Source of the DNA: an uncultured Solirubrobacterales bacterium | Lineage (GTDB): Bacteria; Actinomycetota; Thermoleophilia; Solirubrobacterales; Solirubrobacteraceae | DNA length: 64,000 bases | Direction: 5' to 3' | NCBI GenBank assembly: GCA_963718935.1 | Contig: OY970379.1 | Location: 2,770,108-2,834,107, forward strand | Shown: one piece after another, positions 1-22,214 of the stretch | How positions within the stretch are numbered: position 1 is the first letter of the stretch | How the letters are laid out: every line of letters begins with the position of its first letter | Notes under the pieces: generated by a model | What the model was told of the DNA's origin: nothing | Seen by the model: the letters and a program-made list of their open reading frames with translations, nothing else | The model's database searches: none | Program-made: the position numbers and the translations under genes

Positions 1-1420
1 AGTTGGCGATCCGGGTGAAGCTGACGACATCGAAAGGGTTGACCAGCCACGAGAGATACGCGATCGCGTCCTTGATCTCGGCCCGCTCGTAGAACTTGGT
101 GCCACCGATCACCTGATAGGCGATCTCCCGGCGCACGAGCGTGTCCTCGATCACCCGCGACATGGCGTTCGTGCGATACAGCACCGCGATCTCCGCGCGC
201 GCCGCACCCTCGTCCACCAAGCGCTCGATCTCGCCAACCACGGATCTGGCCTCGGCGTGCTCATCCTCGAGTTCGCGCACCCTGATCGGCTCGCCCTCGC
301 CAAGCTCGCTCCACAGGCGCTTGGCGATTCCGGCCCTGTTGTTGGCAATTACGGCGTTGGCGGCTGAAAGGATCGTCTGCGTCGAGCGATAGTTCTGCTC
401 GAGCTTGACGACCCTTGCGTCCGGAAAGTCGTCCTGGAAGTCGAGGATGTTACGAACGTCCGCGCCTCTGAACCCATAGATCGACTGCGAGTCGTCGCCT
501 ACGACGGCAAGGTTGCGATGGCCGACCGGAGCCGCATAAGACGGGCGCTCCGGCGGATTGGCTTGGTCTCGTCCGCCCTGCCCCCGGGATCGACCTGCCT
601 CGCCGCCAGCCGCCCGCGCCCGACCAAGCTGACCGCCGGTGAGCAGCCGCAGCAGCCGGTATTGGGCGTGGTTGGTGTCCTGGTACTCGTCTACCAAGAC
701 GTGCCTGAAAGCCTGCACGTAGCGCTCGCGTACCTCCGCATACAGCTCAAACGCGTTGACGGTCCTGAACAGGAGGTCATCGAAGTCCATCGCGTTCATC
801 CGCAACAGGTCGCGCTCGTAGGACTCGTACACCTCGGCGACCATCTCCTCGAAAGGCCCGCCGACCGTCTGCCTGTACTCAGCCGCCGACTGCAGCCGGT
901 TCTTGGCGGCGGAGATCTGGCTATGGATGGCGGCCGGGGTGTAGCGCTTGGGATCGATCCCAAGCTCATCGATGCACCTTTTGGTCAGGCGCCGCGCGTC
1001 GGCTTGGTCGTAGATCGTGAACTGCCTGGTGTATCCCAGGCGGTCCGCTTGGGCCCGCAGGATGCGGGCGCAGGCGGCGTGGAAGGTCATCAGCCACATG
1101 CCGCCGGCGCCTCGCCGCAGGAGCGCCTCCACACGGGAGCGCATCTCCGCTGCCGCCTTGTTCGTGAAAGTGATCGCCAGGATCTCGTTCGGCTGGGCCT
1201 GGCCGGTGTAGATCAGGAACGCGATCCTGTGCGTCAGCACCCTGGTCTTGCCACTGCCCGCGCCCGCGAGGATCAGGAGCGGGCCCTCGCCGTGGGTGAC
1301 CGCCTCGCGCTGAGGCTCGTTCAGGCCCGCCAGCAGCTCGTCGACCTTTGCCTCCTCCTCGGGTGGCGTCTGCCCCGGAGGGCGCGGAATCACGAGCTGG
1401 GCCTGGGCATCATCTGGCAT
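1..1420 (-). CDS. pcrA: ATP-dependent DNA helicase PcrA/UvrD, N-terminal part; runs off the window start
   Basis: Hand translation: LNEPQREAVTHGEGPLLILAGAGSGKTRVLTHRIA (Q motif + Walker A); DEYQDTN Walker B at ~670-700. ATG 1420 lies 7 nt after a TATGCT hexamer; alternative ATG 1432. Absent from the ORF track because it is truncated. Confidence 0.95.
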   Translation of the reverse strand, partial: MPDDAQAQLVIPRPPGQTPPEEEAKVDELLAGLNEPQREAVTHGEGPLLILAGAGSGKTRVLTHRIAFLIYTGQAQPNEILAITFTNKAAAEMRSRVEALLRRGAGGMWLMTFHAACARILRAQADRLGYTRQFTIYDQADARRLTKRCIDELGIDPKRYTPAAIHSQISAAKNRLQSAAEYRQTVGGPFEEMVAEVYESYERDLLRMNAMDFDDLLFRTVNAFELYAEVRERYVQAFRHVLVDEYQDTNHAQYRLLRLLTGGQLGRARAAGGEAGRSRGQGGRDQANPPERPSYAAPVGHRNLAVVGDDSQSIYGFRGADVRNILDFQDDFPDARVVKLEQNYRSTQTILSAANAVIANNRAGIAKRLWSELGEGEPIRVRELEDEHAEARSVVGEIERLVDEGAARAEIAVLYRTNAMSRVIEDTLVRREIAYQVIGGTKFYERAEIKDAIAYLSWLVNPFDVVSFTRIAN

Positions 1421-1508
1421 CGGATCCAGCATAGATGCGGACTCGGCGGGCTAGCGTCCCCTCCCGCCCTTCGCCTTCCGGTCCGTGTGCTCGGCCGGCG
1501 ATCGCGTG

Positions 1509-1922
1509 CTACTCAGAGGACCCGATCCGTTGCAGGACCGGGGCCTCCCCACGGGAGCCCTTCGGCTGGACCGAGGCGCGGTGGTAGCGCCTGGTCTTGG
1601 GGTCGCGCTCGAGCAGGCCCGCCGCGACGAGCGTGGTCACGTAGCGGAAGGTGGTGCTCGTCCCCAACCCGAGGATGCCCGCCAGCTCGTTGATGCCGAG
1701 CGTGCGGCCATCTTCGGGGAAACAGCTGAACACGATCAGGCCGGTCAGCAGCGAGCGCGAGATCAGGGGACCGTCTTTGTCGATCGAGCGGTACGCCTCG
1801 GCGAGCCGGGCATGGTCGGCAAGCCCGTTGAGCGCACCCGCCACCCCTCCCTCGCGCTTGGCCTGAAGCAAGACCTGATTGACCTGCGAACGAGAAAGCG
1901 TTATCGAGATCCCGTCGGTCAC
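1509..1922 (-). CDS. Small IclR-type winged-HTH protein lacking the IclR effector domain
   Basis: SRSLLTGLIVFSCF..GINELAGILGLGTSTTFRYVTTLVAAGLLERDPKTRRY matches the IclR N-terminal HTH. Start uncertain (GTG 1922 preferred; ORF extends to 1973). Confidence 0.8.
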   Translation of the reverse strand: MTDGISITLSRSQVNQVLLQAKREGGVAGALNGLADHARLAEAYRSIDKDGPLISRSLLTGLIVFSCFPEDGRTLGINELAGILGLGTSTTFRYVTTLVAAGLLERDPKTRRYHRASVQPKGSRGEAPVLQRIGSSE

Positions 1923-1949
1923 GATCGTGACATGCGGTCGAGAATTAGA

Positions 1950-1980
1950 GGGCCGGGTGCCGTGGGGTAGCACCCGGCCC
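1950..1980. repeat. 11-bp perfect inverted repeat GGGCCGGGTGC-N9-GCACCCGGCCC (hairpin or operator)
   Basis: Read directly; lies between the terpene synthase stop and the IclR-like gene start; no U-tract. Confidence 0.6.
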
Positions 1981-2104
1981 CATCTCTGGCGAGACTGGGA
2001 CTAACGGAACCCATGACCAGCCGCGTCGCGCCCGCACGCCGTATGTACACGGCGCCTCTCGCGCGGGCGCGACATCCGGCTTTCATGGCTGTCCTCGGTC
2101 ACCG

Positions 2105-3349
2105 TTACCGATCTTGACGTGGCAACGCCGGCCTCGCAAGTCCGCTGGCGGAGTATTCCTCTAGCGGATACCAGGGCCTGGCAAGTCCTCCGCCTGGCAG
2201 GCCCAGCGACGATGCCAGAGCGAAGCGGCGATCGGAAAGACGGTGCAGGAACCGGCGTGTGCTCAGAATGGCCATCGTGGGCGCTGACAGGCCGCCAATT
2301 GCGCCCAGAACCCGTTCGCTGGTCAAGCGTGCGCCGGGCAGCCAGGCCCGGCTGTCGGACAGGTAGAGGCCGACCATGCCGGCGAGGATAAGGGTGTGCT
2401 CGACTCCCACCGAGTCCGCCCGGGCGCGGGCGTCGAGCGTCAAGCGCTCCAGACGCGAGGCCATTTCCTGTTCGCTGGCATAGTGCGCCAGCAGGTTGTG
2501 CTGGGCGTGGGCGGCATCTTCCTCGCGGTCGATCAGGCTGTCGAGCAATGTGTGCAGCCCTCCGAGCCATGGCCAGTAGAGCGACTCGATCGCCTGGACG
2601 CGCTCGCGAGACAGAGTCCGGTCCGCGGCGGCCGAGAGCAGCGCGAGTGCGGTGAGCGACGACCCGGCCGCGGCCGCGAGCTCCCACCAGCGCCGTCCGT
2701 CATCCTGCGGCTGCTGCAGCTCGCCCCAGCAGGCGAGCGCCGCATAGCTCTCGCTCCCGGCGAGGTTGACGTAGCTCTGATAGAAGACGATTCGCCGAGC
2801 GTGTGCGCGAACCGGCGATGCCACGATCTCGTAGGAGGGCAACGCGGCGAGCATCGCGCGAACGCGCCGCACCAAGCCGGCCAGATAGCCACCGTCCCGG
2901 CGGCGCGTGCTGTGGGCGTAGTAGTCGATCTGCGGACTGTCCGGCGAGAGCGCCAACACGAGCGCGCTGTGCAGCTGGCGGGCATTGGCGGCCGGCTCCG
3001 CGCATGGCTGCTCCATCACGGCATCGACGTACTGGTAGATGCTTTGCAGCGCGATCAAGAGCCGCACCACCTCCGGTCGGCACTCCGAAGAGGCGAACGC
3101 CGCAAACGCCGCTGCGCCCTCGAGGCTGACCCAGTCTCGGCGAAAGCTCTCGAGCGCGAGCCGACGCAGCACCGGATCCGGGATCTCCGCAGCCTGTGCG
3201 CGCAACGTTCGCAACTCGTTACGCGCAAGCGGAACTATGTGCAGCCAGTAGCAACTGGCCGCCGCGACGAACGCGCTCCCCAACTGATGCCGATCGTCGA
3301 GCTGATGAGACACTCCCGATAGATTGCCACCCCTGGAGAGCTCGTACAA
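2105..3349 (-). CDS. DUF2600 / YtpB (tetraprenyl-beta-curcumene synthase)-like large-terpene synthase
   Basis: Colinear motifs with B. subtilis YtpB: LEG-A (CEGG), ALQSIYQYVD (AYQTISDYLD), LH-AL--AL, DYY, DGGYL--LV, WWELAAAAGSSL (WYEFSACAGSTL), YWPWLGGLHTLLDSLIDREED (YFPYIQGLHILLDYLIDQEED), GLYLSD. Start TTG 3349 or GTG 3313. Confidence 0.85.
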   Translation of the reverse strand: MYELSRGGNLSGVSHQLDDRHQLGSAFVAAASCYWLHIVPLARNELRTLRAQAAEIPDPVLRRLALESFRRDWVSLEGAAAFAAFASSECRPEVVRLLIALQSIYQYVDAVMEQPCAEPAANARQLHSALVLALSPDSPQIDYYAHSTRRRDGGYLAGLVRRVRAMLAALPSYEIVASPVRAHARRIVFYQSYVNLAGSESYAALACWGELQQPQDDGRRWWELAAAAGSSLTALALLSAAADRTLSRERVQAIESLYWPWLGGLHTLLDSLIDREEDAAHAQHNLLAHYASEQEMASRLERLTLDARARADSVGVEHTLILAGMVGLYLSDSRAWLPGARLTSERVLGAIGGLSAPTMAILSTRRFLHRLSDRRFALASSLGLPGGGLARPWYPLEEYSASGLARPALPRQDR

Positions 3350-3358
3350 CCGTTGTCC

Positions 3359-5920
3359 CTATCCCTCCTGAAACCCAGCCCGCGGGGACACCCTAGAGGC
3401 CGAATAGCCCGGTAGCGCAATCACGGCCAGCGCGATTCCGACGAGTAGCAGCAACGTGAACGCCACCTGCAGCCCACCGAAGCCGAAGGGCGCCGGGAAG
3501 CCGGAGCTGATCTGTAGATAGCGATCCGCCAGCGCGTGCGCAAAGACCCCCAGGACCACTCCGTCGACGCAGCCAATTCCGATTACGACGGCGCTCTCCA
3601 GCAGCAAGCTGCGCCACAACTGCCAGTGATCGAATCCCTGTGCCTGCAAGGCGGCCAGGCGGGCTCGTCGTTGATAGATGGCCGTCGACAGGGCGCTGGC
3701 GAGCGCGAGCGCGGCCACGACCAGGAGCAGCGTCGAGATGTCGCCAAGCGTCTTGAGCCCCTGATGCACACTTTGCTCGACTTCGGCGACCCGTTCCGCC
3801 GAGGTCTGAACGCGCAGCCCCGACTGGCCGGCGAGCAGCGTCTTGACGGCTTCCCTGCCCGCGATCGGCGTCACACCGGGCAGGAGGCTCAGCGACAGCG
3901 CGGTCGGAGCGCTCGTCCGCCAGTAGCGGCTGTAGTCGACCGTGTTGAGGATGATCGTCCCCGAAGGCCAGCCCATGTTTGTCGTGATCGCCGCGACCCG
4001 GAAAGGGACGAGTCCCGACGGTGTCGGAAGCATGAACGTGGAGCCCAGGCCAAGGCCGTGTTCCCCGGCGAAGCCGCTGGAGACAGTCGCCCATCCTCCC
4101 GCGCGCAGCCGCGCGTTGGCCTCGGCGAGATCGCCTTCGTGCAGTTGGCTTGAAAGCACCATCGAACGAGCGCTGCGGGGAACGGCGAGGATCCAGAGGC
4201 GATGGGTTCCGAGATCGACGAAGCCCCCTTGGTGGACTTGAACAGCACCGATGACCCCGCCGCCCGCCTTCAGCGCCCCCGGACGCTGCAGCCTGAAGCT
4301 ATCGGCGTCGAAGATATTGCCGTCGGGCGTCACCCACACTGGCGCCGAGCCCCACTCCTGAGCAATCGCCTCGTCCAATCCACGCAGCAAATCGTGGCGG
4401 GCGCCGCCCACGGAGACAGATCCGAAGACCGCCAGCGCGGCCACGCTGGCGAGCGCGATCGAACGCGTTGCGATCGCATCCATTTCGATTGCGGTCACGG
4501 CGAGCATCCCTCCGTGGTGCCGGCGAGCGACGTGTCGCAGAAGACTCGAGGCGGCTCTGAACAGAAGCGGGATCAGACAGACCGCGGCGAGCGCGAGCAG
4601 CACGCCGCCGAGGAGAGCAAGCGAGGCGTCGAAGGCAACCCCGACGCCAACGAGCGCGACCAGCGCCAGCCCGAGGGCGGCCAGTCCCAGCGCGGTGCGA
4701 CGGGTGATCGCTTGGCCCGGCTCCCCGTGCTCCTGCAGTACCGCATCGACCGGTCGCGCCGACCGTAGATCGAAGACGGGCGCCAACGAGACGAGCAGTG
4801 CCGCGGCGAGGCCACAGCCGAACGCCACGACGACGGTGCTCAGGTGCACGGTTTGGCTGGCGGTCACCGGGAACACGGTCGTCAGAAAGGTCGGCGTCTG
4901 ATGAAACAGGGTGCGCGCCAGCAGCTCGCCCGCGAAGATGCCGACGCAAGAGGCGAACGCACCGAGCACCAACGCCTGAAAGACAGCGATGCTGAGCACC
5001 TGACCGGTGTCAAAGCCCTGCACCCGCATGTCGGCGATCGCCCGCCGCCGCTCGGGCACGGTCAGCAGCATCGCGTTGAGGGCAAGCAGGAACCCGACCA
5101 TCGCGGCGATTGCCACGAACAGCGAGGTCGACTGGTCTACGGGCTTGGCGGCTGTCTCGGCGAGGGCCAGTTCTCGGTCCGCTGGCTCGACGTCGAGTGT
5201 CTGACCGGCGATGGAGCGCAGCTCGCTCTGAACCTGACGATAGGCGCCGGGCGCCGGCTCGACGAGGACCTCGCTGATCTGACCGCTCGCCCCAGAGATC
5301 CGCTGGGCATAGGGCAGCAGCGTCACCACGATCGTCGCGGAGGCGAGCGGTCCGATCGCGTCGGAGCTCAGCACGGCGCGCACGTCCACGGTATGGGCCA
5401 CACCGTCGACCACCAACGTCGTCGCCTGCCCCGCTTCAGCCCCGATCGCGGTCGCGAGGCTCTCCGGAACGCCCACCCCGTGCACCAGCAGCAACCCTTC
5501 GGCGCCCAGCCCCTTGGTGACCGTCCCACCGAGCGTGGTCAGGCCCGCACCGGCGCCGATGAACTGCACACGCTCACGCCGCGAGGGGCCCTCGATCACG
5601 GCGCTCTGGCGCAGCAGCGGGGCTGACGCGCGTACGCCCGGCAACGCGGCGATGCGCTCCGCAATCCGATGACTGAACGTGCTGGGCGAGCGCGCCACCA
5701 CCTGCAGGTCAGCCGAGCCGCCGAGTGCGTGAATATCGGCGTTCACCGAGCTGACGATGCTGCCGTTGGCGACGAGCACCCCAAACACGAGCGCTACGCC
5801 AACGGCGATGCCGGCGCCTGCCAGCAACTCTGTGACCGCGTGGTCGCGCAGGCGCCGTATATAGAGGCCGCACAGCACACTCAGACGAACACCGAAGACG
5901 AGTGGGTTCAGGCGCCTCAT
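3359..5920 (-). CDS. FtsX/MacB-family ABC permease with duplicated architecture
   Basis: 853 aa; two TM bundles with 'V.ERRR.IA.MRVQG' and 'IYQRRARLAALQAQG' FtsX-type motifs, two large extracytoplasmic loops; TGATG overlap with the upstream ATPase. Confidence 0.9.
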   Translation of the reverse strand: MRRLNPLVFGVRLSVLCGLYIRRLRDHAVTELLAGAGIAVGVALVFGVLVANGSIVSSVNADIHALGGSADLQVVARSPSTFSHRIAERIAALPGVRASAPLLRQSAVIEGPSRRERVQFIGAGAGLTTLGGTVTKGLGAEGLLLVHGVGVPESLATAIGAEAGQATTLVVDGVAHTVDVRAVLSSDAIGPLASATIVVTLLPYAQRISGASGQISEVLVEPAPGAYRQVQSELRSIAGQTLDVEPADRELALAETAAKPVDQSTSLFVAIAAMVGFLLALNAMLLTVPERRRAIADMRVQGFDTGQVLSIAVFQALVLGAFASCVGIFAGELLARTLFHQTPTFLTTVFPVTASQTVHLSTVVVAFGCGLAAALLVSLAPVFDLRSARPVDAVLQEHGEPGQAITRRTALGLAALGLALVALVGVGVAFDASLALLGGVLLALAAVCLIPLLFRAASSLLRHVARRHHGGMLAVTAIEMDAIATRSIALASVAALAVFGSVSVGGARHDLLRGLDEAIAQEWGSAPVWVTPDGNIFDADSFRLQRPGALKAGGGVIGAVQVHQGGFVDLGTHRLWILAVPRSARSMVLSSQLHEGDLAEANARLRAGGWATVSSGFAGEHGLGLGSTFMLPTPSGLVPFRVAAITTNMGWPSGTIILNTVDYSRYWRTSAPTALSLSLLPGVTPIAGREAVKTLLAGQSGLRVQTSAERVAEVEQSVHQGLKTLGDISTLLLVVAALALASALSTAIYQRRARLAALQAQGFDHWQLWRSLLLESAVVIGIGCVDGVVLGVFAHALADRYLQISSGFPAPFGFGGLQVAFTLLLLVGIALAVIALPGYSASRVSPRAGFQEG

Positions 5921-6621
5921 CAGGCGAGCGAGGCGTACAGCTCGAGGTCCAGCCCCTCGCTGAGCCGTCCGTCGCGCAAAGTGCAGACACGGTCGACGAA
6001 CGTCGTCGCCTGGGGGTCGTGGGTGACCAGCATGATCGGGATGTTCTGCTCGCGGCAGATCTCGGAGAGCAGCGCCAGGATCTCGCGACTGCGCTTGGAG
6101 TCAAGGTTGCCGGTCGGCTCGTCGGCCAGCAATATGCGCGGACTATTCGCGAGCGCGCGAGCAATCGCCACGCGCTGACGCTCACCCATCGACAGTTCGG
6201 CTGGCGTGTGACTCATCCGTTCCCCCAGCCCCACCCGCTCCAGCCACGGATGAGCCATCCGAGCGGCCTCCCCGAGACTCATCCCGAGCGCGAGCAGCTT
6301 CAGCGCGGCGTTGTCGAGCGCCGAGGCGCCTGGCATCAGTTGAAAGGATTGGAAGACGACGCCGGTCTGCTCGCGCCGGTAGCGCGCACTATCGCGCGCG
6401 CCCAGGTTGCTGATCTCGCGGCCTTCGAAGGAGACGCTGCCTTCGTCGGGCTGCATGATCGCGGCCGCGAGCAGCAGAAGCGTGCTCTTGCCTGATCCAC
6501 TCGGCCCGTACAGGGCCACGAACTCGCCCTGCGCGATGCTCAGCGAAACCCGATCTACGGCGTTGACGGTCTCCCCCGCGCCCACGTAGCGCTTTGAGAC
6601 CTCACACAGCTGGAGCGTCAC
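5920..6621 (-). CDS. ABC ATPase (LolD/MacB type), canonical motifs
   Basis: Walker A GPSGSGKS, signature LSMGERQR, Walker B ILLADEP, H-loop VTHD. Confidence 0.95.
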   Translation of the reverse strand: MTLQLCEVSKRYVGAGETVNAVDRVSLSIAQGEFVALYGPSGSGKSTLLLLAAAIMQPDEGSVSFEGREISNLGARDSARYRREQTGVVFQSFQLMPGASALDNAALKLLALGMSLGEAARMAHPWLERVGLGERMSHTPAELSMGERQRVAIARALANSPRILLADEPTGNLDSKRSREILALLSEICREQNIPIMLVTHDPQATTFVDRVCTLRDGRLSEGLDLELYASLA

Positions 6622-7361
6622 GACACACCGAGGCCGCCGCGTCGCTCGCTCAGACTGATCACCTTGCGGCGACTGTCGGCCGAATACAGCCGGCCGCCGT
6701 CGAGGCTCATGATCCGGATCCGGCTTCCCCCGCGCAGAGCTGCGACCTCTTCAGAGGCAATCACAAGCGAGCAGCCGATGCGCTTGGGCAGCGCGTGCAG
6801 AAGCGTGTACATCTCCCTGGCCTCGGCCGGTTTGGTTATGACCGCCGGCTCATCGACGAGCAGCAGTCCCGGTTCGCGCGCGATCGCCCGGGCCAGTTCG
6901 ACGCGCAGACGCTCGCCCAGCCCTAGCCTTGCGACCGATACGTAGGCGAGCTCGGACGCATCCACGTCGTGCAGCGCCCGCCGGGCACAGTCCTCGGCTC
7001 GGGCAATCGTCAGGCCCTCGCTGAAGAGCGGCATCGCGACATGCTCGATCGCGAGCCTCCCGTCCCCCAACCTCGAGTCGCCGCGGACAAGCGCAATTCC
7101 GCCGTGGCGTCTGGTGTGAGCACGCTGGTCGGGGCGCAGCTTGGAGAGCGAGCGCCCGCGCCAGAGCACCTCCCCCTCGTCTGGCGTGTCCAGGCCGGAC
7201 GCAAGGCGCAGCAACGTCGTCTTGCCGGCCCGGCGCGAGGCGAGCACGCCGAGGATCTCGCCTTCGTGGAGCTCGAAGGAGACCCGGTCCAGCACAGCCA
7301 GCGGACGCAGGCCGTCACGGAAGCGCTTGGTGACCTCGCGAAACTCGAGGAGCGCGCTCAT
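6618..7361 (-). CDS. ABC ATPase-like protein with degenerate motifs
   Basis: Walker A ASRRAGKT, signature LGLGERLR, Walker B LLVDEP, H-loop region ASEE. ATG 7361 overlaps the PadR stop (ATGA). Confidence 0.85.
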   Translation of the reverse strand: MSALLEFREVTKRFRDGLRPLAVLDRVSFELHEGEILGVLASRRAGKTTLLRLASGLDTPDEGEVLWRGRSLSKLRPDQRAHTRRHGGIALVRGDSRLGDGRLAIEHVAMPLFSEGLTIARAEDCARRALHDVDASELAYVSVARLGLGERLRVELARAIAREPGLLLVDEPAVITKPAEAREMYTLLHALPKRIGCSLVIASEEVAALRGGSRIRIMSLDGGRLYSADSRRKVISLSERRGGLGVS

Positions 7362-7945
7362 TGCCGTCGTTCGGCGAGAAACTCGTCGAGCACCTGGCAG
7401 GTTTCCCCGACCCACTCGGCTTCCGCCTTCAGCCGCTTGTCGACCGCCGACCGATGCAGGCTCATGACAGTTCCCAACCACGACACCCGCGGTGTTTCGG
7501 TCTCGGCGTTCTCTTCCATCTCTTCGATCAGATCTACCCGCAATTCGTTCAGCGCACGCAACAGCTCCGGGATCTCCTCCTCGGTGCAGAACGCCAGTCG
7601 CGCGTGAATGTCGGCGCGCACGATGCTCGCGGTCGGAGGCGCGACCAGCCAGTCCCGGCGCGCCTGTATGGCCCTTTCGGTCGGATAGAAGAATCGCCGC
7701 GTATATGGCGGCTCGTCGATCGTTCGCTCTTCAGACCAAACGAGGCCCGCGTCTTCGAGCTGTTTGAGCACGGGATAGATGTGCTTGGCCTGTACCCGCC
7801 AGGAAGCCCCCATGCGTCGGTTTATGCGCTTGGCGACCTCATATCCGTAGGTCGGACCCTCGAGCAGCACGGCCAACGCCGCCGCCTTGACAGGCGGCAT
7901 GGCTTCAGCGGTGGACGCCTCGTTGCGTGCCTTCATACTAGCCAT
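7358..7945 (-). CDS. PadR-family transcriptional regulator (long form with C-terminal helical domain)
   Basis: LAVLLEGPTYGYEVAK...IYPVLKQLEDAGLV...RRFFYPT..W; C-terminal AEAEW. Start could be ATG 7945, 7936 or 7900. Confidence 0.9.
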   Translation of the reverse strand: MASMKARNEASTAEAMPPVKAAALAVLLEGPTYGYEVAKRINRRMGASWRVQAKHIYPVLKQLEDAGLVWSEERTIDEPPYTRRFFYPTERAIQARRDWLVAPPTASIVRADIHARLAFCTEEEIPELLRALNELRVDLIEEMEENAETETPRVSWLGTVMSLHRSAVDKRLKAEAEWVGETCQVLDEFLAERRQ

Positions 7946-7959
7946 TCAGTCTCTACCAG

Positions 7960-7965
7960 ATATTA
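7960..7965 (-). promoter_or_regulatory. Candidate -10 element (TAATAT) for the padR operon in an AT-rich intergenic region
   Basis: TANNNT hexamer 14 nt upstream of ATG 7945; sequence match only. Confidence 0.3.
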
Positions 7966-8119
7966 GAACGTTAGTTACCCACTCGTTACGATCCTACAAA
8001 TCGGAATATGACGATGAACGCTCTCTTTGACAAGGGTCGTTTCTGACTACGCCCGATACGCCCGCCCCCACAAGGGCTGACTCCCAAGACGCATCCGGTC
8101 GTGTTGGCCTGTGCCCGCG

Positions 8120-8863
8120 CTAGCCCCCAGCCGGGTTCGGTCCGCGCACCGTGCGCAGCGATGTGACCTCGGCGACCTGCTCCTCGGGTTGCTCGCCCGA
8201 GAGCTCGCCGACAGCCCGTTCCAGGGCGCCAATCCTGCTCGCCAGACCCTGGATTGCCTCCGCGATCGGATCCGGCAGATGGATCCAGTCCGTGTCGGGA
8301 CCCTCCACGCGCCGCCCATCGATGCGGACGGGATGGCCGGGGTTGCCGACGACCGTGCAGTTCGCCGGCACATCCGTAATGACGACGCTGTTGGCGCCGA
8401 TCTTCGCGCCGTGCCCGATCGTGATCGGTCCGAGCAGCTTCGCGCCCGAGCCGATTGTGACGTTGTCCTGCACCGTCGGATGGCGCTTGCCGGTCGCGAA
8501 CCCGGTGCCGCCGAGCGTGACCCCCTGATAGAGCGTCACATCCTCGCCGACGTCGGCCGTCTCCCCGATCACGACGCCGGCGCCATGATCGATGAACAGC
8601 CCCGGTCCGATCCTGGCGGCCGGATGGATCTCGATGCCGGTCACCGCGCGGGCAGCCAGTGCGAGCGCACGTGGCGCCACCGGTACCCCGGCCTCGTGCA
8701 GCGCATGCGCCAAGCGATACGCCAGCAGGGCGTGGATTCCCGGCCAGGTCGCCAGGAGCTCGGCATCCCCGACCCCACGCGTGGCGGGGTCGCGCTCGCG
8801 CGCGGCGGCCACGTCGCGCCTTAGCTCGCCCACGAGCCGCCCCAGGGCGCCATCTCCGAACAT
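8120..8863 (-). CDS. cysE: Serine O-acetyltransferase
   Basis: ARERDPA, TWPGIHALLAYRLAH, TGIEIHPAARIG.GLFIDHG.GVVIGETA, TLYQGVTLGGTG..KRHP hexapeptide repeats; start set at ATG 8863. Confidence 0.95.
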   Translation of the reverse strand: MFGDGALGRLVGELRRDVAAARERDPATRGVGDAELLATWPGIHALLAYRLAHALHEAGVPVAPRALALAARAVTGIEIHPAARIGPGLFIDHGAGVVIGETADVGEDVTLYQGVTLGGTGFATGKRHPTVQDNVTIGSGAKLLGPITIGHGAKIGANSVVITDVPANCTVVGNPGHPVRIDGRRVEGPDTDWIHLPDPIAEAIQGLASRIGALERAVGELSGEQPEEQVAEVTSLRTVRGPNPAGG

Positions 8864-10276: not shown

Positions 10277-10669
10277 CTAGATGTAGTACATGCTGGCGCC
10301 GGCCTCGCGCGACTCGCGCTCGATCACGTCGGCGATCGTCGTCTTGGCGAGCACCGCGCGCGCGGCGGCGGCCGCGTCGGCGAACACGCTCTCGGCGTCG
10401 CGCCCGACTGGCCCGTCGAGTAGCTCGACGATCTCGAGGACGCTCACCTCGGCGGGATCGCGCGCGAATCGATAGCCGCCCTTGACTCCGCGCTGGGAGC
10501 TGACGATCCCGGCGCGTCTGAGCGTCGCGAACAGTTGCTCCAAGAACTGCACCGGCATCTCGCGCCGCCGTGCAAGCTCGCCGATCGGCACGGGCTCAGA
10601 CCCACCGCTGCGACCAAGCTCGGCGAGGGCGTTCACGGCATACGGGGACTTGCTGGTGATCGAGATCAT
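10277..10669 (-). CDS. cymR: Rrf2-family regulator, CymR-like (no Fe-S cysteines)
   Basis: ITSKSPYAV.AL.EL..FLEQLF..LRRAG.V.S.RG.KGGY; no Cys; ends MYYI; directly upstream of cysK-cysE. Confidence 0.8.
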   Translation of the reverse strand: MISITSKSPYAVNALAELGRSGGSEPVPIGELARRREMPVQFLEQLFATLRRAGIVSSQRGVKGGYRFARDPAEVSVLEIVELLDGPVGRDAESVFADAAAAARAVLAKTTIADVIERESREAGASMYYI

Positions 10670-10690
10670 CGCCGAGGCGATGCTAGGGCA

Positions 10691-11959
10691 CTACAACCAG
10701 CCACGCTCGGTGGCGATCAAGACCGCCTGGGCGCGATCGACGGCGCCGAGCTTGCCATAGATGTTGTGCAGGTGGGTGCGAACCGTGCTCGTGGAAAGGG
10801 TCAGCTCGTGAGCGATCTGCTTATAGACCTTGCCTTCAGCCAGGCGCTGGAGTACGCCCAGCTCGCGGCTGGAGAGCGGCGAGGGATCGACATGGCGCTG
10901 GCGCTGATCGGCGGCGCTGGGCAGCTCGTACATGACCCGCCGCAGCTCCTGCGGGCCCAGGCCGAGCAGACGCGCGGTCTGCAGCATCTCTACCGGGGAG
11001 ACCGAGGCCCCACGTTCGTAGTGGGCCAGCATGTCAGCCAGGCGCACGATTGCGATCTCGCCGTCGACATCCGGGTTGTGGTGGCGCTCGACGACGGTGG
11101 CGATCGAACCGGGCAAGCCCCAACGGCGGATCAGGACGCCGCCGACAAGCGCGTGGTCGACGCCCAGCTCGCGGCGCTCCTGGTGAATGCGTTCCTCCGG
11201 AGTCTTTGCGCCACGGTGGACCTGGGCCGGATAGCCGGGATAGGCGTGCAGGAGCACAAGCTTGCCGACGTCGTGAAGCATGCTCGTGACGGTCAGCCGG
11301 TTGCGGTGGGCATAACCGACCTCCGCGGCGAGTCGATCGGCCGCTTGCTGGGTGGAGATGGCATGCAGCCGGAAACGCTCTGGTGCGGCCTCCCACACGC
11401 TGGAGCGCTCGAAGAAGTCGAAGGTCCTCATCTTGCCGGCAAGGGTCCGAACGGTCTTCTCGCCCAGCAGCTCGACGGCGGCGACGACCGTGTCGATGCG
11501 CCCGCGCGCCCCTTGGGCCTGGTTGGCGACGCGCAGTACCGCGATGCTGAGTGCTACGTCTGACTCGATCGCGGCCACGATGTCGGCGGTCGCGACGTTC
11601 TCTCCGTCGACGACGGCCAACAGCCGGTTGCGTGGCTCAGCCAGAGCCGGAAACGCCTCCAGAGCCTCGAACGCGTTGGTCAAGCGCCGGCCGTGGCCTT
11701 CGGCCTGGGGGCGGGCTGGCGACGGCGCTCGAGCCTCGGCGGGGCCGGCCTCGACAGCGGCGGCTTGGGGCGCAGCTGCGTCCTTGACGCGCCCGCTCGC
11801 GCCTGCTCCCGGCCGGCCGGGAGTGGTGTTCGGACCGGCGCCTCTGCGCGCCGACGGCGAAGCCGTGGTCCTAGGGGCAGTCCGTTTGCCTTTGGTCGCC
11901 GTCGCTGGCATTGTCGAGGTACTATCGGCGCCGCTCGAGGAATTATTGAGAGGACACAT
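10691..11959 (-). CDS. HDOD domain + C-terminal LuxR HTH regulator
   Basis: FPAL..IESDVAL...VLRVAN..IDTV..AV.LLG (HDOD), LHDVGK, LGVDHA.VG..L.RRWGLP; C-terminal LSSRELGVL..LAEG...KQIA.EL.LSTSTVRTHL.NIY.KLG (LuxR). SD GGGAG before ATG 11959. Confidence 0.9.
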   Translation of the reverse strand: MCPLNNSSSGADSTSTMPATATKGKRTAPRTTASPSARRGAGPNTTPGRPGAGASGRVKDAAAPQAAAVEAGPAEARAPSPARPQAEGHGRRLTNAFEALEAFPALAEPRNRLLAVVDGENVATADIVAAIESDVALSIAVLRVANQAQGARGRIDTVVAAVELLGEKTVRTLAGKMRTFDFFERSSVWEAAPERFRLHAISTQQAADRLAAEVGYAHRNRLTVTSMLHDVGKLVLLHAYPGYPAQVHRGAKTPEERIHQERRELGVDHALVGGVLIRRWGLPGSIATVVERHHNPDVDGEIAIVRLADMLAHYERGASVSPVEMLQTARLLGLGPQELRRVMYELPSAADQRQRHVDPSPLSSRELGVLQRLAEGKVYKQIAHELTLSTSTVRTHLHNIYGKLGAVDRAQAVLIATERGWL

Positions 11960-12027
11960 GCATCTCCCGCTCCCCCGGCCGGGTCGCGCTCCATGTAGCC
12001 CTCCGCGGACGCAGCCGCCGCGCGGTC

Positions 12028-13413
12028 TCAGCCGGCTCGTGCAGACTCAGATTCTAGCACAGATTCCAACATTCGGTCTATTCGTCTGAGGGTCTCCGGC
12101 TGTCCCAGCAGCACGACGCTCTCGAATATTCCGGGCGAAACGGTCGTTCCGGCGATCGCTACGCGCAGCGGCTGAAAGACCTCGCGTGGCTTGACCGCGA
12201 GTCGAGCGACCAGAGCTTCCAGAGCCCTTCCGACCTCGAACTCGCTGAACTCGTCGAGCTCCGCGAGGACCGCCCGCGCCTGACCGAGCCTCGCACGCCC
12301 GTCATCTCCCAGCCAGCGCTCCCTGGCCTTGGCGTCCTCAACGGGCTCCCCCAACAGTGGCCCGGCCAGCGGCCAGAAGTCGGCCAAAGTCGAGATCTTC
12401 TCCTGACTGATCGCCACCGCGCGGTCCAGTCGCGGATCCTGGGCGGCCCGCTCGTGCCCTTCTTCGCGCAGGCGCCCCGCGACGCGTTCGGTCAGCTCCT
12501 TGGCGGCCAGCCTTCGGATCCAGACGCCGTTGAGCCACTTGAGCTTGGCCTCGTCGAAGCGCGCCGGGTTGCGACTGACCTGATCCAGCTCGAAGCGCTC
12601 AACGAGCTCGGCGGTGCTGAGCACGGTTTCGTGCCCGTCGCCGGGACCCCAACCCAAGAGCGCCAAATAGTTGCGCACCGCCTCGGGCAGATAGCCGCTC
12701 TCGCGCAACTCCTGCACCGAGGCAGCGCCATGGCGCTTCGAGAGCTTCTTGCCGTCCGGCCCGTGCAGCAGCGGCAAATGCGCGTAGATGGGTTGGGGCG
12801 CGCCTAGCGCCTCCAGGACGAGCAGCTGCTTGGGGGTGTTCGAGAGGTGGTCCTCGCCGCGCACCACGTGCGTGATGCCGGCGTCGAGGTCGTCGATCGC
12901 GACGGCGAAGTTGTAGAGCGCCGACCCGTCGGCCCTGGCGATCACGGGATCGTCGAGATGGGCATGCGCGAAGACCGTGTCGCCGCGGACCGCGTCGTGC
13001 ACGACCGTCTCGCCTTCGTCGGGCACACGCAGGCGGACGGCGCCGTCGGCCTCGGCCTCACCGCGAAAACCGCGGTCGGCGCCGTTCAGCCGCTTGTACT
13101 CCTTGACGTCCTCTGCGATCGCGTTGCTGCGGTAGGCGTGGCCTTCTCGCAAGAGCCGCTCGAGCGCCTGGCGGTGGCGCTCGGCGCGCTCTGTCTGCAT
13201 GATCGGCCCTTCGTCCCAGTCGAGCTCGAGCCACTCGAGCGCGTCGATGATCTGCGCGACGTTCTCGGGTGTCGAGCGCTCACGGTCGGTGTCCTCGATA
13301 CGCAGGACCAGCTTGCCGCCGCTGTGGCGGGCGAGCAGCCAGTTGAACAGGGCGGTACGCGCACCGCCGATGTGCAGGGCGCCCGTGGGCGATGGCGCGA
13401 AGCGAACCTTCAT
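12028..13413 (-). CDS. gltX: Glutamyl-tRNA synthetase
   Basis: VRFAPSPTG.LHIGGARTALFNWL, LRIEDTD.ERS, HVVRGEDH.SNT, KLSKR; start ATG 13413. Confidence 0.96.
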   Translation of the reverse strand: MKVRFAPSPTGALHIGGARTALFNWLLARHSGGKLVLRIEDTDRERSTPENVAQIIDALEWLELDWDEGPIMQTERAERHRQALERLLREGHAYRSNAIAEDVKEYKRLNGADRGFRGEAEADGAVRLRVPDEGETVVHDAVRGDTVFAHAHLDDPVIARADGSALYNFAVAIDDLDAGITHVVRGEDHLSNTPKQLLVLEALGAPQPIYAHLPLLHGPDGKKLSKRHGAASVQELRESGYLPEAVRNYLALLGWGPGDGHETVLSTAELVERFELDQVSRNPARFDEAKLKWLNGVWIRRLAAKELTERVAGRLREEGHERAAQDPRLDRAVAISQEKISTLADFWPLAGPLLGEPVEDAKARERWLGDDGRARLGQARAVLAELDEFSEFEVGRALEALVARLAVKPREVFQPLRVAIAGTTVSPGIFESVVLLGQPETLRRIDRMLESVLESESARAG

Positions 13414-13471
13414 TGTCGAACCCTCATAGGATGCGCGGCATGCTAGCCGTCGTCGCCCCAGAGACCTCGAA

Positions 13472-14335
13472 ATGCTGATCGGCGCGCACGTATCCCCCGC
13501 GGGTGGCCTGCCAAAGGCGATCGAACGAGGGGTCGAGCGCGGCTGTGAGGCGATCCAGATCTTCAATCAGTCGCCGCGCATGTGGAAACCGACCGCCTAC
13601 ACCGAGGCAGACTTCGCCGCGTTCCGCCAGGCCATGTCCGACAGTCCGATCGAAGCGGTCCTGATCCACGCGGTCTACTTGCTGAACTGTGCCAGCGACG
13701 ATGCCGACATCCGCGCCAAATCGCTGGCTTCGCTGACGCACTCCCTGCGCGTCGGTCAGGCGATCGGCGCCGCCGGGGTGGTCCTGCATCCGGGCTCGGC
13801 CAAGACCGGCGACGTCGGCGAGGCGATTGAGCGCGCCGGCGAGACGATTGGGCAGGCCCTGGCCGACAGCGAAGGCTGTGAGCTTCATCTGGAGAACACG
13901 GCCGGCGCGGGCGGGACGCTCGGGCGCTCCTTCGAGGAGCTGCGGGCGCTGCTCGACGCGGCCGGCGGCGACGAGCGGCTCGGGGTGTGCTTGGACTCCT
14001 GCCACCTACTCGCCTCCGGCTATGACATCCGCACCGGCCCCGGCATGGCGTCGGTGCTGCGCGACGCCAACCGCAAGCTCGGCCGCGGGCGCGTCAGGTC
14101 GCTGCACTTGAACGACTCCCAGACCCCACTGGGCTCGAACCGCGATCGCCACGCCAACGTCGGCGAGGGCGAGCTCGGCGAGGAGGGCTGTATGGCGTTC
14201 CTGTCGGCCAAAGGACTACAGCGACTGCCGTGCGTGCTCGAGACCCCCGGCGAGGAACGAGCCGGTCCTTCGCGCCAAGAAGTCGAGCTTGCGATGGCCT
14301 TGCGTAAACAGGGTCTGGCGAGAGCCGGCGGCTGA
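13472..14335 (+). CDS. nfo: Endonuclease IV (AP endonuclease family 2)
   Basis: MLIGAHVS..GG, HAVYLLN, VLHPGS, LENTAG, CLDSCH, HLNDS, DRHANVGEG, LETP. Confidence 0.95.
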   Translation: MLIGAHVSPAGGLPKAIERGVERGCEAIQIFNQSPRMWKPTAYTEADFAAFRQAMSDSPIEAVLIHAVYLLNCASDDADIRAKSLASLTHSLRVGQAIGAAGVVLHPGSAKTGDVGEAIERAGETIGQALADSEGCELHLENTAGAGGTLGRSFEELRALLDAAGGDERLGVCLDSCHLLASGYDIRTGPGMASVLRDANRKLGRGRVRSLHLNDSQTPLGSNRDRHANVGEGELGEEGCMAFLSAKGLQRLPCVLETPGEERAGPSRQEVELAMALRKQGLARAGG

Positions 14336-14416
14336 CAAGAGGCCAGCCGGCGAGATGCCGGCCAAACGAGGCGCTGGCCGGCGCGTCCACGGACAGGCGG
14401 CGGCGGGCCCGAGCGC

Positions 14417-17400
14417 TCAGCCGGCGGCGGCCGCAGCCGGCTGCTCCCGATCCGGCAGGGCCGGGGCGAGCGCGTTGTCGAGCTCAGCCCGCAGACTGGG
14501 CGTATTTTGTACGCGGAATTCGTCACCCAGACGCAACCTGCGGACGCCGGCCGAGGTTTCGATGTCGAGCAGGATCTCGGCGGGGCCGGCATAGTCTTCG
14601 GCGAGCTGCTTGATGTCCTCGATCGCGCCGGCCCGCAGGTCAGCGGCCCGTGCGTGCGCGCACACTGGCTTGGCCAGGGTCACGGCCCGCTTGGCCTCGC
14701 TCTCGGCCTGGCCGCGCGCCTCTTCGATCTCCTGCTCGGACGGCGCGAAAACCTCGGCGCTCTGAACGACCAGACAGGTCTTGCCGGCTTCCTTGTGGTC
14801 GACCCGCCCGCGTACGAGCACAACCTGGTCGACGGCGAGCGCCGTCTCGTGCTCGGCCAACGCCTTGCCGAAGACCAACAGTTCGACGGCGCCACCGAGA
14901 TCGTCGAGCGTCGCGAACATCATCGGGTCGCCGGCCCGCGTGCGAATGCGCTTGGTCTCGACGACGATCCCGCCGACCGTGACCCAGTCCTTGTCGCGGC
15001 GCTCGGCGAGCGCTTGCAGCGGGCAGTCGGTGCGCGCGCGCATGATCTCTCGCAGGGGCTTGAGTGGATGCGCCGAGACGAACAGGCCGATCGCCTCCTT
15101 CTCGACCGCCAGCAGCTCGGCCTGCTCGAACTCCTCGCTTGGAATCGGCGGGTGGGTCGGCCGCGCGAACGCGTTGACGGGCCGCGCGGCGTCCGCCGTC
15201 GGCGTCTGCTCGGCTTCGGCGAGATCGAAGATCGAGCCCTGGCCGATCTGGGCGTCCTGCTGGATCTTCTGGCCGGCCGCCTGGGCCTGTTCGAGCACCG
15301 ACAACATGCCCTTGCGACTCGCTCCCGTCGAGCCGAACGCGCCGCACTTGACGAGCGCCTCGATCGCCTTCTTGTTGACCGCCCTGCTGTCCACGCGCTC
15401 GCAGAAGTCCCACAGCGAGACGAAGTCTCCGCCCTCTTCGCGGGCCCGTTTGATCGCCTCCACGGCCTGATAGCCGACGCCCTTGACAGCGTCAAGACCG
15501 AACCTGATGTTGCCGATCAAGCCCGCCGGCCCGGCCGACCCAGCTCCCTGGGCCGCGTGCCCCCCCGGTGTCCCGACCGTGAACTCGTGGTCTGAGAGGT
15601 TCACGTCGGGAGGCAATATCTCGATTCCCATCTCCTCGCAGCGGGCCACGAAGAACGGGACCTTGTCCTTTGTTGACATCACCGAAGAGATCAGCGCCGC
15701 CATGTACTCGGCCGGATGGTTTGCCTTCAGCCAGGCGGTGCGATACGCGATCAGTCCGTAGCAGGCGGCATGGCTCTTGTTGAACGAGTAGTCGGCCGAG
15801 CGTTCGTTGGTCTGCCACAGGAAGTCGATCGTGGCCTGGCTCGTCCCCGACGCGCGGCAGCCCTCCACGAACTCCGGCTTGAGCGCCGCCATCGCCGCGC
15901 GGTTCTTCTTGCCGATCGCCTTGCGCAGATCGTCGGCCTTGGCCCCCGAGAAGCCGGCCAGCTCCTTGGAGATCTGCATTGCCTGCTCCTGATAGAGGAT
16001 CACCCCCTTCGAGGACTGCAAGATCGGGCGCAAACGCTCGTCCGGGTATGCGATCGCCCCGGGGTTGTGCTTTCCCTTCGCGTATACCGGGATCTGATCC
16101 ATCGCCCCCGGCCGGTACAGCGCGTTCAGCGCCACAAGGTCGTCGAATTCGTCGGGCTTGACCTTCTTGAGGGCCTCTTTCATGCCTTCGGACTCGAACT
16201 GGAACACTCCGGTCGAGTCCCCGCGCGTCAGCATCTCGTACGTCGCTCGGTCGTCGAGGGGCAGGCTCGTCATGTCCGGGCGCACGCCGGTCGAGCGCTC
16301 GATGATGTCCAGGGCATCCTCGATCACATCGAGGTTGCGCAGACCCAAGAAGTCCATCTTGAGCAGGCCGATGTCCTCGATCGGCTTCATCGAAAACTGC
16401 GTGACCGTACGAAACGCGCGCTCGCCGTTCTCGTCCGCGCCGGCGTCGGCGAGCTGCAGGGGCACGATGTCGGTCAACGGACGGTCCGCGATCACCACCG
16501 CGGCGGCGTGGATCGAGCTGTTGCGCACGATTCCCTCAAGGCCCTGCGCCACCTCGACTATCCGCTTGGCCTCGGGCTCGGCATCGCAGGCCTTGCGCAA
16601 CGGTTCCCCCGCTTTCAGACATTCCTCGAAGGAGGGCGCCCTGCCCATGATCGGGTCCGGGATCAGCTTCGCCAGGCGATCGCCGGTGCCGTAGTCGAAG
16701 CCCAGCACCCGCGCCGCGTCGCGGGTGGCGGCGCGCGGGAACATCTTGCCGAACGTGACGATCTGCGCGACCGACTCGCGACCGTACTTGTCGGTCACGT
16801 ATTTCATGACCCGCTCGCGCCCGCGCACCGAGAAGTCGATGTCGATGTCCGGCATCGACACGCGCTCCGGGTTCAGGAAGCGCTCGAACAGGAGGTCGTA
16901 CCGCAGCGGGTCGACGTCGGTGATCGACAAGCAGTAAGCGACGATCGAGCCGGCCGCCGAACCGCGGCCCGGGCCCACGGCGATGCCGTTCTCCTTGGCG
17001 AACTTGACGAAATCCCAGACGATCAGGAAGTAGGCGTTGAAACCCATCCGGTCGATCACGCCCAGCTCCATCTCCACGCGCTCGATCGCCTCGGCCGGGA
17101 CCGGGTCGCCGTAGCGCAGCTTCACTCCTTCGAGCACGCGCGCGCGCAGATAATCGCGCTCGCCGGTCCCATCGGGGGTCTGGAAGCGCGGGATCAGCTG
17201 CTTGCCGAGCTCGATCTGCACCGAGCAGCGCTCGGCGATCTCGAGCGTGCTGGCGATCGCCTCCGGCCACTGCGCGAAGGCTTGGGTCATCTCGGCGTTG
17301 TCGCGCAAATAGAACTCGTTGTTGTCGAACGTCAGCTTCGGCGCCGCCAGGGTGCTCTTGGTCTGCACGCACAGCAGCGCGGTGTGGTGGTCGTAGTCCT

Positions 17401-18067: not shown

Positions 18068-18100
18068 CGTGAGTTCGATGTTAGGCGCCGAGCCGGCGGC

Positions 18101-18697: not shown

Positions 18698-18807
18698 CTG
18701 GGCTCGCCAGTGAGCCTACGGGCCCGGCCGGACAGTTCGGCAGCGCTCCCGATTGGGGCCGGGTGCGTGTGCGCGCGCGGGCACGCGCGCACGCGCGAAT
18801 CCTCGGG

Positions 18808-20099: not shown

Positions 20100-20103
<4 letters not shown>
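18808..20103 (-). CDS. argG: Argininosuccinate synthase
   Basis: LLYSGGLDTS, IAHGCTGKGNDQVR, YSIDDNLWGRSSEG, IEDRIVGLK.R.IYEAP. Confidence 0.97.
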
Positions 20104-21322
<1,219 letters not shown>

Positions 21323-21326
<4 letters not shown>

Positions 21327-22183: not shown

Positions 22184-22214
22184 AGCGCCTCCGATCGTGT
22201 TGAGCCCCACGTGG

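Follow-up and report, generated by a model that had tools for sequence, protein, structure and literature searches.

The 64-kb window analysed here, i.e. 64,000 nucleotides of contig OY970379.1 from an uncultured soil bacterium of the order Solirubrobacterales, carries on its minus strand an operon of five genes encoding a PadR-family regulator, two ATP-binding cassette (ABC) ATPases (ABC1 and ABC2), an FtsX-family permease and a DUF2600 protein homologous to the class IB terpene synthases of Bacillus. The pairing of this synthase homologue with the transporter is nearly invariant across more than 140 related loci, in three gene orders overall, and the cassette probably marks a pathway, so far unstudied, by which long-chain terpene lipids are made and handled. 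An original prediction, made by a model from the sequence alone, had read the five genes as a self-contained module that makes, exports and senses a long-chain terpenoid in a poorly studied actinobacterial class; the host lineage is indeed Thermoleophilia, order Solirubrobacterales.

Regarding conservation, two scans were made, namely a pattern search covering one genome per GTDB species, in which the best 80 of 348 relatives were inspected, and a scan of metagenomes starting from a third DUF2600 subclade (Asn at the first residue of motif 1, see below), in which the best 80 of 359 matches were inspected. Cassette content in the genome loci was scored by tblastn with the window proteins, 75 loci having at least 4.75 kb upstream, and gene starts in related loci are approximate. 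The best 80 genome loci all belong to Solirubrobacterales metagenome-assembled genomes, with DUF2600 proteins ranging from 80% down to 43% identity to that of the window. The order PadR-ABC1-ABC2-FtsX-DUF2600, all on the same strand, was found in 74 of the 75 loci with enough flank, which far exceeds chance, with median intergenic distances of -4, -4, -4 and ~45 nt, and in the five loci truncated by the end of a contig, the cassette is partial as expected. Purifying selection acts on each of the five genes, the ratio of nonsynonymous to synonymous substitution rates (dN/dS) being 0.06-0.26 in four close pairs. At the lone genome locus without the full cassette (L068, 9662..11104), a 107-aa 3' remnant of FtsX still abuts DUF2600, and the cassette there is, for this reason, to be regarded as decayed or rearranged.

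Beyond the window-type (type-1) cassette, a type-2 form devoid of PadR and ABC1 associates a single ABC gene with FtsX (840 aa) and DUF2600 (366 aa); it was found in L019, L026, L081 and L082, its DUF2600 protein being 32-34% identical to the window protein in the first two, and has more than 2000 relatives labelled Solirubrobacteraceae. The metagenome loci comprise 23 in the window order, 43 in the order DUF2600-ABC-FtsX, 5 in neither and 9 too short to judge, which places DUF2600 beside a YbbP-type transporter in 66 of 71 decidable loci, in two gene orders. The original prediction had named rare adjacency elsewhere as a ground for abandoning it and had proposed a cassette search with paralogue counts; adjacency turned out to be near-invariant (74/75 and 66/71 loci), and 11 of the 68 assemblies to which the 80 genome loci belong carry two or three cassettes, a lower bound drawn from the best 80 of 348. 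That the linkage survives gene reordering and deep divergence is the strongest argument for a functional coupling of the enzyme and the transporter. The dependence is asymmetric, since the same genomes also contain related ABC-FtsX pairs that lack DUF2600 (L012, L013, L016). The three homologue searches for DUF2600 were all saturated by Solirubrobacterales, and the gene contexts described are those of this order.

The five genes (Table 1) form one operon. The coordinates and junctions read as originally predicted: on the minus strand, padR and ABC1 overlap by ATGA (7361..7358), ABC1 and ABC2 by GTGA (6621..6618), and ABC2 and the permease gene by TGATG (5922..5918), whereas the permease stop codon TAG (3361..3359) is followed by 9 nt, GGACAACGG, and then by the TTG codon at 3349 of DUF2600. 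In the public annotation (P0001, 402 aa), DUF2600 begins at GTG 3313, leaving a 45-nt gap from the permease gene, and the alignment of relatives is compatible with both starts; at either length, the gap is too short for a terminator and a promoter. A scan of 1300..8400 returned a sole sigma-70-like promoter match, at 8033..8005 just upstream of padR (0.6 expected by chance), and no promoter or terminator match between the permease and DUF2600 genes. Three weak terminator matches within the operon, all inside coding sequence, were at chance level and were discarded. With the overlaps, the lone promoter match upstream of padR and the same order in nearly all genome loci, the single operon of the original prediction stands, as do the gene families that it named.

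Table 1. Coordinates of the operon genes and of associated features in the window
Feature	Coordinates	Strand	Details
PadR-family regulator gene, first in operon	7945..7358	minus	195 aa
ABC ATPase 1 (ABC1) gene	7361..6618	minus	247 aa
ABC ATPase 2 (ABC2) gene	6621..5920	minus	233 aa
FtsX permease gene	5920..3359	minus	853 aa
DUF2600 gene	3349..2105	minus	414 aa from TTG 3349, 402 aa from GTG 3313
Promoter-like region upstream of padR	8005..8043	minus	TTGTCA 8033..8028, 17-nt spacer, CATATT 8010..8005
Candidate operator CGAT-N7-ATCG	7989..8003	minus	directly downstream of -10 hexamer
Short IclR-type gene, helix-turn-helix (HTH) only	1509..1973	minus	154 aa, 131 nt downstream of DUF2600

The family of the last gene of the operon was confirmed with a hidden Markov model, the match to PF10776 (DUF2600) reaching 1.7e-70 and 237.9 bits (cut-off 25) over profile positions 1-314 of 328 in Pfam, and the family profile in turn matches BalTS (PDB 5yo8) at 1.6e-61. 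The AlphaFold model of the window protein (mean per-residue confidence, pLDDT, 84) aligns in Foldseek with 6loo and 5yo8 at E 3e-18, a target-normalised template-modelling score of 0.88 and a root-mean-square deviation of 2.6-2.8 A, ordinary class I synthases ranking far below the BalTS structures; 6loo is the complex of BalTS with a substrate analogue. The family comprises 1416 clusters at 50% identity, 639 of them at E <= 1e-30, and the best 150 of the 1416 all score above BalTS against a Solirubrobacterales profile, 146 being closest to type-1 proteins; at least these 150 clusters are thus more like the cassette proteins than BalTS is. Neither signal peptide nor transmembrane (TM) helix was found in the DUF2600 protein, which should thus be cytoplasmic or peripheral.

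At the catalytic positions, motif 1 of the window protein reads QYVDAVME (Q106, D109, E113) and departs from the DYLDNLxD consensus with its three essential Asp, the first Asp being replaced by Gln, Asn by Ala and the third Asp by Glu. This Glu is found at the third acidic position in 80/80 genome loci, and the first position is Asp in 69/80 and Gln in 11/80, the latter 11 making up the window's subclade; among 150 cluster representatives, it is D in 95 and N in 30, the clade-wide motif being [DNQ]YxDxxxE. Motif 2, DSLIDREED (D270, D274, D278), keeps the Asp residues of the DY(F,L,W)IDxxED consensus with Tyr replaced by Ser, and these three residues are retained in 80/80 loci and invariant in alignment A1, as are D109, E113 and G229. 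The kink glycine of the G helix (BalTS G208) aligns to G229, inside an invariant GSS, and altogether 5 of the 6 acidic metal-binding positions are conserved. Asn or Gln together with Asp and Glu is a normal Mg-binding set of canonical class I NSE/DTE motifs. From such an NSE/DTE-like metal set and a dN/dS of about 0.2 (0.15-0.26 for DUF2600), we infer that the window enzyme is probably active despite the Gln in motif 1. A pseudogene reading of the Gln-variant synthase, or of the degenerate ATPase described below, was ruled out by dN/dS values of 0.1-0.26. The protein ends in a disordered C-terminal tail (residues 384-414), which carries WYPLEEYSASGL (2105..2200, minus). A YP[LIF]x[DE] motif stands at the extreme C-terminus of 7/70 type-1 proteins, all from the window's subclade, and occurs elsewhere in these proteins once in ~21,000 positions; the tail may be a docking peptide.

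Regarding the transporter, the permease matches by sequence alone only weakly to LolC/LolE/MacB, with two FtsX stretches (7e-26) and a MacB_PCD-like domain in Pfam. Both the hydropathy profile and the AlphaFold model (pLDDT 78) predict 10 TM helices, with beta-rich extracytoplasmic domains at TM1-2 (~residues 57-262) and TM7-8 (~508-722), and the best Foldseek match of the model is E. coli YbbAP (9ge6/9ge7, E 8e-20, 888 columns) over the whole length, followed by LolE, MacB, BceAB and HrtB. The single permease YbbP of E. coli has this very topology, i.e. 10 TM helices with extracytoplasmic domains at TM1-2 and TM7-8 (McAndrew et al., PMC12646458), and the model places the window protein among the YbbP-type permeases of Type VII ABC transporters. 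The MacB/LolCDE-type transporter of the original prediction needs correcting as to the permease, which is specifically of the YbbP type and neither MacB nor a LolC/E protomer. Conservation in its extracytoplasmic domains is only moderately below that of the TM helices.

The two ATPases, first taken as twins, are in fact dissimilar (~31% identical), with ABC_tran matches of 3e-20 for ABC1 and 1.4e-34 for ABC2 in Pfam. As judged from its motifs, ABC2 is a canonical ATPase of the LolD/FtsE/MacB/YbbA kind, all of its catalytic motifs being invariant in 76 loci; among NCBIfam models, it matches LolD (2e-62) and YbbA (3e-52), both under the equivalog cut-offs, as well as DevA. In ABC1, Walker A reads ASRRAGKT (Ser to Arg, with Arg in 75/76 loci), the Q-loop Gln is missing, the signature is LGLGE in the window with a consensus of L[GSA]x[SGA]E across loci, the H-loop His is replaced by Glu (ASEE, with ASE[ED] in 73/75 loci), and the Walker B DEP motif is retained. 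ABC1 is thus a conserved degenerate subunit, with the same changes kept in 76 loci and purifying selection acting on the gene (dN/dS 0.10-0.19), and for this reason we read it as the non-catalytic or regulatory partner in an asymmetric ATPase pair. No other description of such a pair in a Type VII (FtsX-family) system is known to us. The type-2 and DUF2600-first cassettes have one ATPase gene only.

The reading that we favour, if tentatively, is that of a PadR-headed and probably self-repressed operon in which a YbbAP-type Type VII ABC machine has a cytoplasmic class IB synthase as its dedicated partner. In the make-export-sense scheme, which remains the leading interpretation, a terpene would be at once the product of the synthase, the cargo of the transporter and the ligand of PadR. 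The synthase would take a long all-trans polyprenyl diphosphate from primary metabolism, because the cassette holds no prenyl synthase and none recurs nearby, and the most likely substrate would be C35 heptaprenyl diphosphate from the menaquinone-7 pool, menaquinone-7 being the menaquinone of cultured Solirubrobacterales. Mg2+-dependent ionisation would yield a very hydrophobic beta-prene or curcumene-like hydrocarbon partitioning into the membrane, from the outer leaflet of which the two extracytoplasmic domains of the permease would extract it to the wall or the exterior, driven by the asymmetric ATPase pair, in which one subunit is catalytic and the other degenerate. Extraction of lipid cargo from the outer leaflet is likewise thought to be the task of LolCDE, HrtBA and YbbAP. 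PadR, accompanied in most loci by a downstream IclR regulator, would set expression in response to a hydrophobic ligand. The pulling of hydrophobic molecules out of the membrane to serve a partner enzyme has been proposed for YbbAP (PMC12646458).

Clustering of the flanks of the 80 genome loci revealed no recurrent prenyl synthase, cyclase, P450 or tailoring gene, no recurrent secreted hydrolase and no recurrent histidine kinase or response regulator. With housekeeping neighbours and no recurrent prenyl or tailoring genes, the cassette is self-contained and has to be supplied from a prenyl diphosphate pool of primary metabolism, and the clustered prenyl synthase and tailoring enzymes that define a canonical terpene biosynthetic gene cluster are lacking. 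Several points weigh against the favoured reading. Bacillus makes C35 terpenes without any exporter. The presence of several paralogous cassettes in one genome, every one with a regulator, looks more like a set of inducible detoxification modules than like biosynthesis. Besides, Type VII transporters normally have extracytoplasmic partners (PMC12646458), whereas the DUF2600 protein has no signal peptide, and the first catalytic Asp is Gln in the window's subclade (11/80 loci), whereas six Asp are essential in BalTS, where mutation of any of them abolishes activity (Fujihashi et al., PMC5939612). With more reserve still, it is possible that the cassette represents a new functional class of Type VII systems, the dedicated partner of which is a cytoplasmic enzyme making the cargo: the class IB synthase would turn heptaprenyl diphosphate of the menaquinone pool, or other long prenyl diphosphates, into hydrocarbons, and the YbbP-type extractor, powered by its catalytic and degenerate ATPases, would at once pull them out of the membrane to the cell surface.

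Among known systems, E. coli YbbAP-TesA (PDB 9ge6-9ge8; PMC12646458) is close in its 10 TM helices, its MacB-like domains at TM1-2 and TM7-8, its TM5-6 linker, its LolD/YbbA-kind ATPase and the genomic pairing of the transporter with a lipid-acting enzyme. It differs in that TesA is a periplasmic SGNH hydrolase, whereas the partner here is a class IB synthase without signal peptide, and in that YbbA is a homodimer, whereas two distinct ATPase genes, one degenerate, are present here; the cassette further includes PadR and IclR regulators, resides in a monoderm actinobacterial host and shows ~14% identity. With BalTS and BsuTS (YtpB) (PMC5939612), the window protein shares the Pfam family, an alpha-helical class I-like fold, motif 2, the G-helix Gly and the length, but identity is ~26%, motif 1 is altered, a disordered C-terminal tail of about 45 aa is present, the genomic partner is an ABC transporter and not the hydrolase ytpA, and there are multiple paralogues per genome. 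That the Bacillus context is another one, namely ytpAB, had been stated correctly in the original prediction (10.1101/2024.01.17.576085). LolCDE, HrtBA and DevBCA, which extract acyl chains, heme or glycolipid from the outer leaflet, have the same mechanotransmission fold, ABC2 matching both the LolD and DevA models; unlike the present permease, they are built of separate 4-TM protomers with periplasmic or outer-membrane partners, and their operons encode no enzyme of this kind that would make the cargo. Finally, the Acidobacteria PadR (TIGR03433) and ADOP (TIGR03434) families also bring together a PadR-family gene and a duplicated ~800-aa FtsX permease, but the cassette scores far under their cut-offs (30 vs 102 and 31 vs 622 bits) and ADOP pairs have no DUF2600 partner. 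ADOP permeases are, in the TIGRFAM description, 'orphans' without adjacent ATPases.

Of the alternatives, the main and credible one, though less likely than the favoured reading, is protection against envelope stress or antibiotics following the logic of the BceAB and Bcr modules with which Firmicutes resist bacitracin: the transporter would shield or free polyprenyl diphosphate carriers from the antibiotics binding them, the synthase would drain heptaprenyl diphosphate or remodel the membrane under stress, membrane perturbation would induce the operon via PadR, and each paralogue would deal with a different antibiotic. Cell-wall antibiotics induce ytpAB of B. subtilis through sigma-M, and loss of ytpB leads to bacitracin sensitivity through heptaprenyl diphosphate accumulation, with an interplay with the FtsX-family transporter BceAB, which handles antibiotics bound to polyprenyl diphosphates (10.1101/2024.01.17.576085; PMC7038271; PMC5939612); such accumulation, however, did not inhibit BceAB (PMC7038271). 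BceB is likewise an FtsX-family permease, BceAB having the same 10-TM fold with a lipid site near the equivalent of the YbbAP pocket (PMC12646458) and being among the Foldseek matches of the permease, but it has one large extracytoplasmic domain, at TM7-8, against two here and signals through BceRS, no counterpart of which is among the recurrent flanks. Multiple cassettes per genome, with their own regulators, do resemble the multi-copy, paralogous modules of the Bce type, repressor-first operons are typical of inducible detoxification, and a functional link with polyprenyl diphosphates exists for the Bce as well as the Bcr modules. Bcr operons even combine a regulator, an ABC transporter and an enzyme removing diphosphate from polyprenyl diphosphate; yet BcrAB belongs to another ABC type, BcrC and BcrD are phosphatases of the membrane that act outside the cell, and neither Bce nor Bcr modules include a terpene synthase. 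Against this alternative, the synthase lies in the cytoplasm but the targets bound by such antibiotics lie outside the cell, and a generic drain of heptaprenyl diphosphate would not require a synthase gene duplicated strictly one-to-one with every transporter. The hypervariability that drug sensing of the Bce kind would lead one to expect in the extracytoplasmic domains was looked for among paralogues and not found.

Less probable still is that DUF2600 is no synthase in the usual sense but a cytoplasmic lipid-binding or regulatory subunit, or an enzyme of altered chemistry (prenyl transfer or diphosphate hydrolysis), that would dock on the ATPases or the permease and couple the prenyl diphosphate status of the membrane to the transporter. 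The clade-wide deviation of motif 1 from DYLDNLxD, with the third Asp always Glu and the first position D, N or Q, can be read this way, and so can the tight linkage, which fits a physical complex, the conserved disordered tail of the window's subclade with its YP[LIF]x[DE] motif as a possible docking peptide, and the repurposing of the terpene-synthase fold elsewhere, going by the title of 10.1101/2020.03.31.014811. Against these stand the invariance of the G-helix Gly and of 5/6 acidic positions, the close fold match to ligand-bound BalTS, and the residues of motif 1 themselves, which correspond to the NSE/DTE set, applied here by inference. The single fusion of DUF2600 to an HTH_3 domain (P0414) would suit a regulatory subunit but may be an artefact of gene calling. 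In this one cluster representative, the HTH_3 domain is C-terminal and of the XRE type, and the fusion may be either a real sensor-regulator or a gene-calling read-through. Searches for Rosetta-stone fusions of DUF2600 with transporter parts found none.

That DUF2600 is merely downstream of an unrelated PadR-regulated efflux operon is highly improbable: in its favour are the junction with FtsX, a gap (9-45 nt here, median ~45 nt) and not an overlap, and the ABC-FtsX pairs without DUF2600 in L012, L013 and L016, but the adjacency in 74/75 genome and 66/71 decidable metagenome loci, down to ~32% DUF2600 identity and in three gene orders, and the absence of any promoter or terminator match between the two genes in effect already refute it.

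As anticipated by the original prediction, the pathway has no published description that could be found; full-text literature searches returned none of this cassette, nor of DUF2600 in Actinobacteria. The components themselves are of known kinds, and what appears new is that they are obligately paired, that the partner is cytoplasmic, that the two ATPases form an asymmetric pair and that the expansion is lineage-wide. To our knowledge, nearly all that is known of large (C25-C35) head-to-tail terpenes and of their class IB synthases comes from Bacillus, and the physiological role of YbbP-type transporters, on which nothing was known until 2025, is still unclear. An evolutionary survey called YtpB Firmicute-restricted (PMC7306690), and nearly all of the DUF2600 members sampled here adjoin a YbbP-type ABC transporter. 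The idea of a membrane extractor plus enzyme gains support from this second and independent case of a transporter paired with an enzyme active on lipids, which extends it to monoderms. The cassettes offer clonable targets for new large terpenes, and allow the active removal of terpene hydrocarbons from membranes to be tested and an asymmetric ATPase pair to be studied in a Type VII system. If the cassette does represent a new functional class of Type VII systems, the diverged copies would give the Solirubrobacterales a repertoire of surface or secreted large terpenes, so far unsought. Solirubrobacterales are among the commonest soil actinobacteria.

Regarding regulation, PadR matches PF03551 at 5e-12 (46 bits vs a cut-off of 27) and is of the long subtype with a C-terminal domain, its best solved relative being B. 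subtilis PadR 5x11 (9e-8), with 1yg2 also a relative; its gene, present in 74/75 loci, has a dN/dS of 0.06-0.14. Upstream of padR, the block GAAACGACCCTTG (8043..8031) precedes and overlaps the promoter match and is, in close relatives, a short palindrome, AACGnnCGTT, and a GGAAACGnnCnTTG block, common to the closer relatives of the window, coincides in part with the -35 hexamer and forms a palindrome in several of these loci. The same layout, GGAAACGnnCnTTGyC followed after ~17 nt by TAGGAT, is found upstream of padR in ~12 related loci; a TAGGAT-TCCGAyCTrTyGTAT block at and after the -10 hexamer is common to the closer relatives of the window and takes in, in the window itself, the candidate operator of Table 1, and the block around this operator, ATTCCGAyyTrTnGnATCG, is conserved in L001, L004, L007 and L018. 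These palindromes are weak candidate operators. No inverted repeat of at least 8 nt was returned by a repeat finder in 7930..8130, and the PadR operator ATGT-N8-ACAT has no match with at most 1 mismatch in 7946..8110, its matches over the whole window being at chance level.

The IclR family is the sole recurrent neighbour beyond the five genes, with 41 full-length and 10 short copies in the clustering of flanking open reading frames (ORFs), downstream of DUF2600 on the same strand at an estimated median of ~263 nt; in most related loci, it is the full-length form that stands there. The window copy has HTH_IclR (2e-10) without IclR_C in Pfam and is probably a separate transcription unit, and the examples in L002 and L012 carry both domains. 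Another short HTH-only IclR-type protein (162 aa, without IclR_C) is encoded elsewhere in the window (33136..33624, plus strand), and similar genes for 136-137-aa proteins lie close to the type-2 cassettes of L081 and L082.

Several loci bring further observations on the cassettes. In L019 (5333..19862), type-1 and type-2 cassettes lie ~4 kb apart in opposite orientation; the stretch between them holds genes for two or three regulators of the IclR family and for an integrase of the phage type (13377..14558, minus). In L081 (1..2753) and L082 (1..2629), the type-2 cassette is ~3 kb from hopanoid side-chain genes, encoding HpnH (520 bits, cut-off 225), with a phosphorylase similar to HpnG and a membrane protein similar to flippases also encoded there; the vicinity of hpnG/hpnH may tie the cassette to terpenoid membrane lipids, a lead from two syntenic loci. 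The third gene order, i.e. DUF2600, a single ABC and the permease without PadR, was found in L085 (9839..14524), L098 (9956..14419), L121 (8213..12604) and 40 others, and is followed by a convergent ORF pair of ~250-283 aa and 162-182 aa without Pfam match. Two DUF2600 genes with no adjacent transporter (L084, 2306..4551; L087, 4260..6585) have a DAGK_cat lipid kinase gene (YegS/DgkB-like) directly upstream on the same strand. L077 and P0133, labelled 'uncultured proteobacterium' and 'Polyangiaceae', have a cassette or sequence typical of Solirubrobacteraceae, and these labels are probably binning or labelling errors.

In the window itself, the upstream flank of the operon is housekeeping, with Rrf2-cysK-cysE and, farther out, an HDOD-LuxR regulator, gltX, dnaE and argG/D/B, and downstream lies a PcrA/UvrD-type helicase gene extending past the left end of the window. 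No second cassette was found elsewhere in the 64 kb, and an Rfam scan of the whole window found no riboswitch or leader, its sole match being a tRNA (60480..60552, plus strand). A reading as anti-phage defence was dropped, PADLOC having returned generic ATPase matches only. The third-position GC of the cassette genes (2105..7945) is 0.76-0.84, compared with 0.81-0.91 in most housekeeping neighbours (10277..60451), and besides this slightly low value the cassette shows no other sign of recent transfer.

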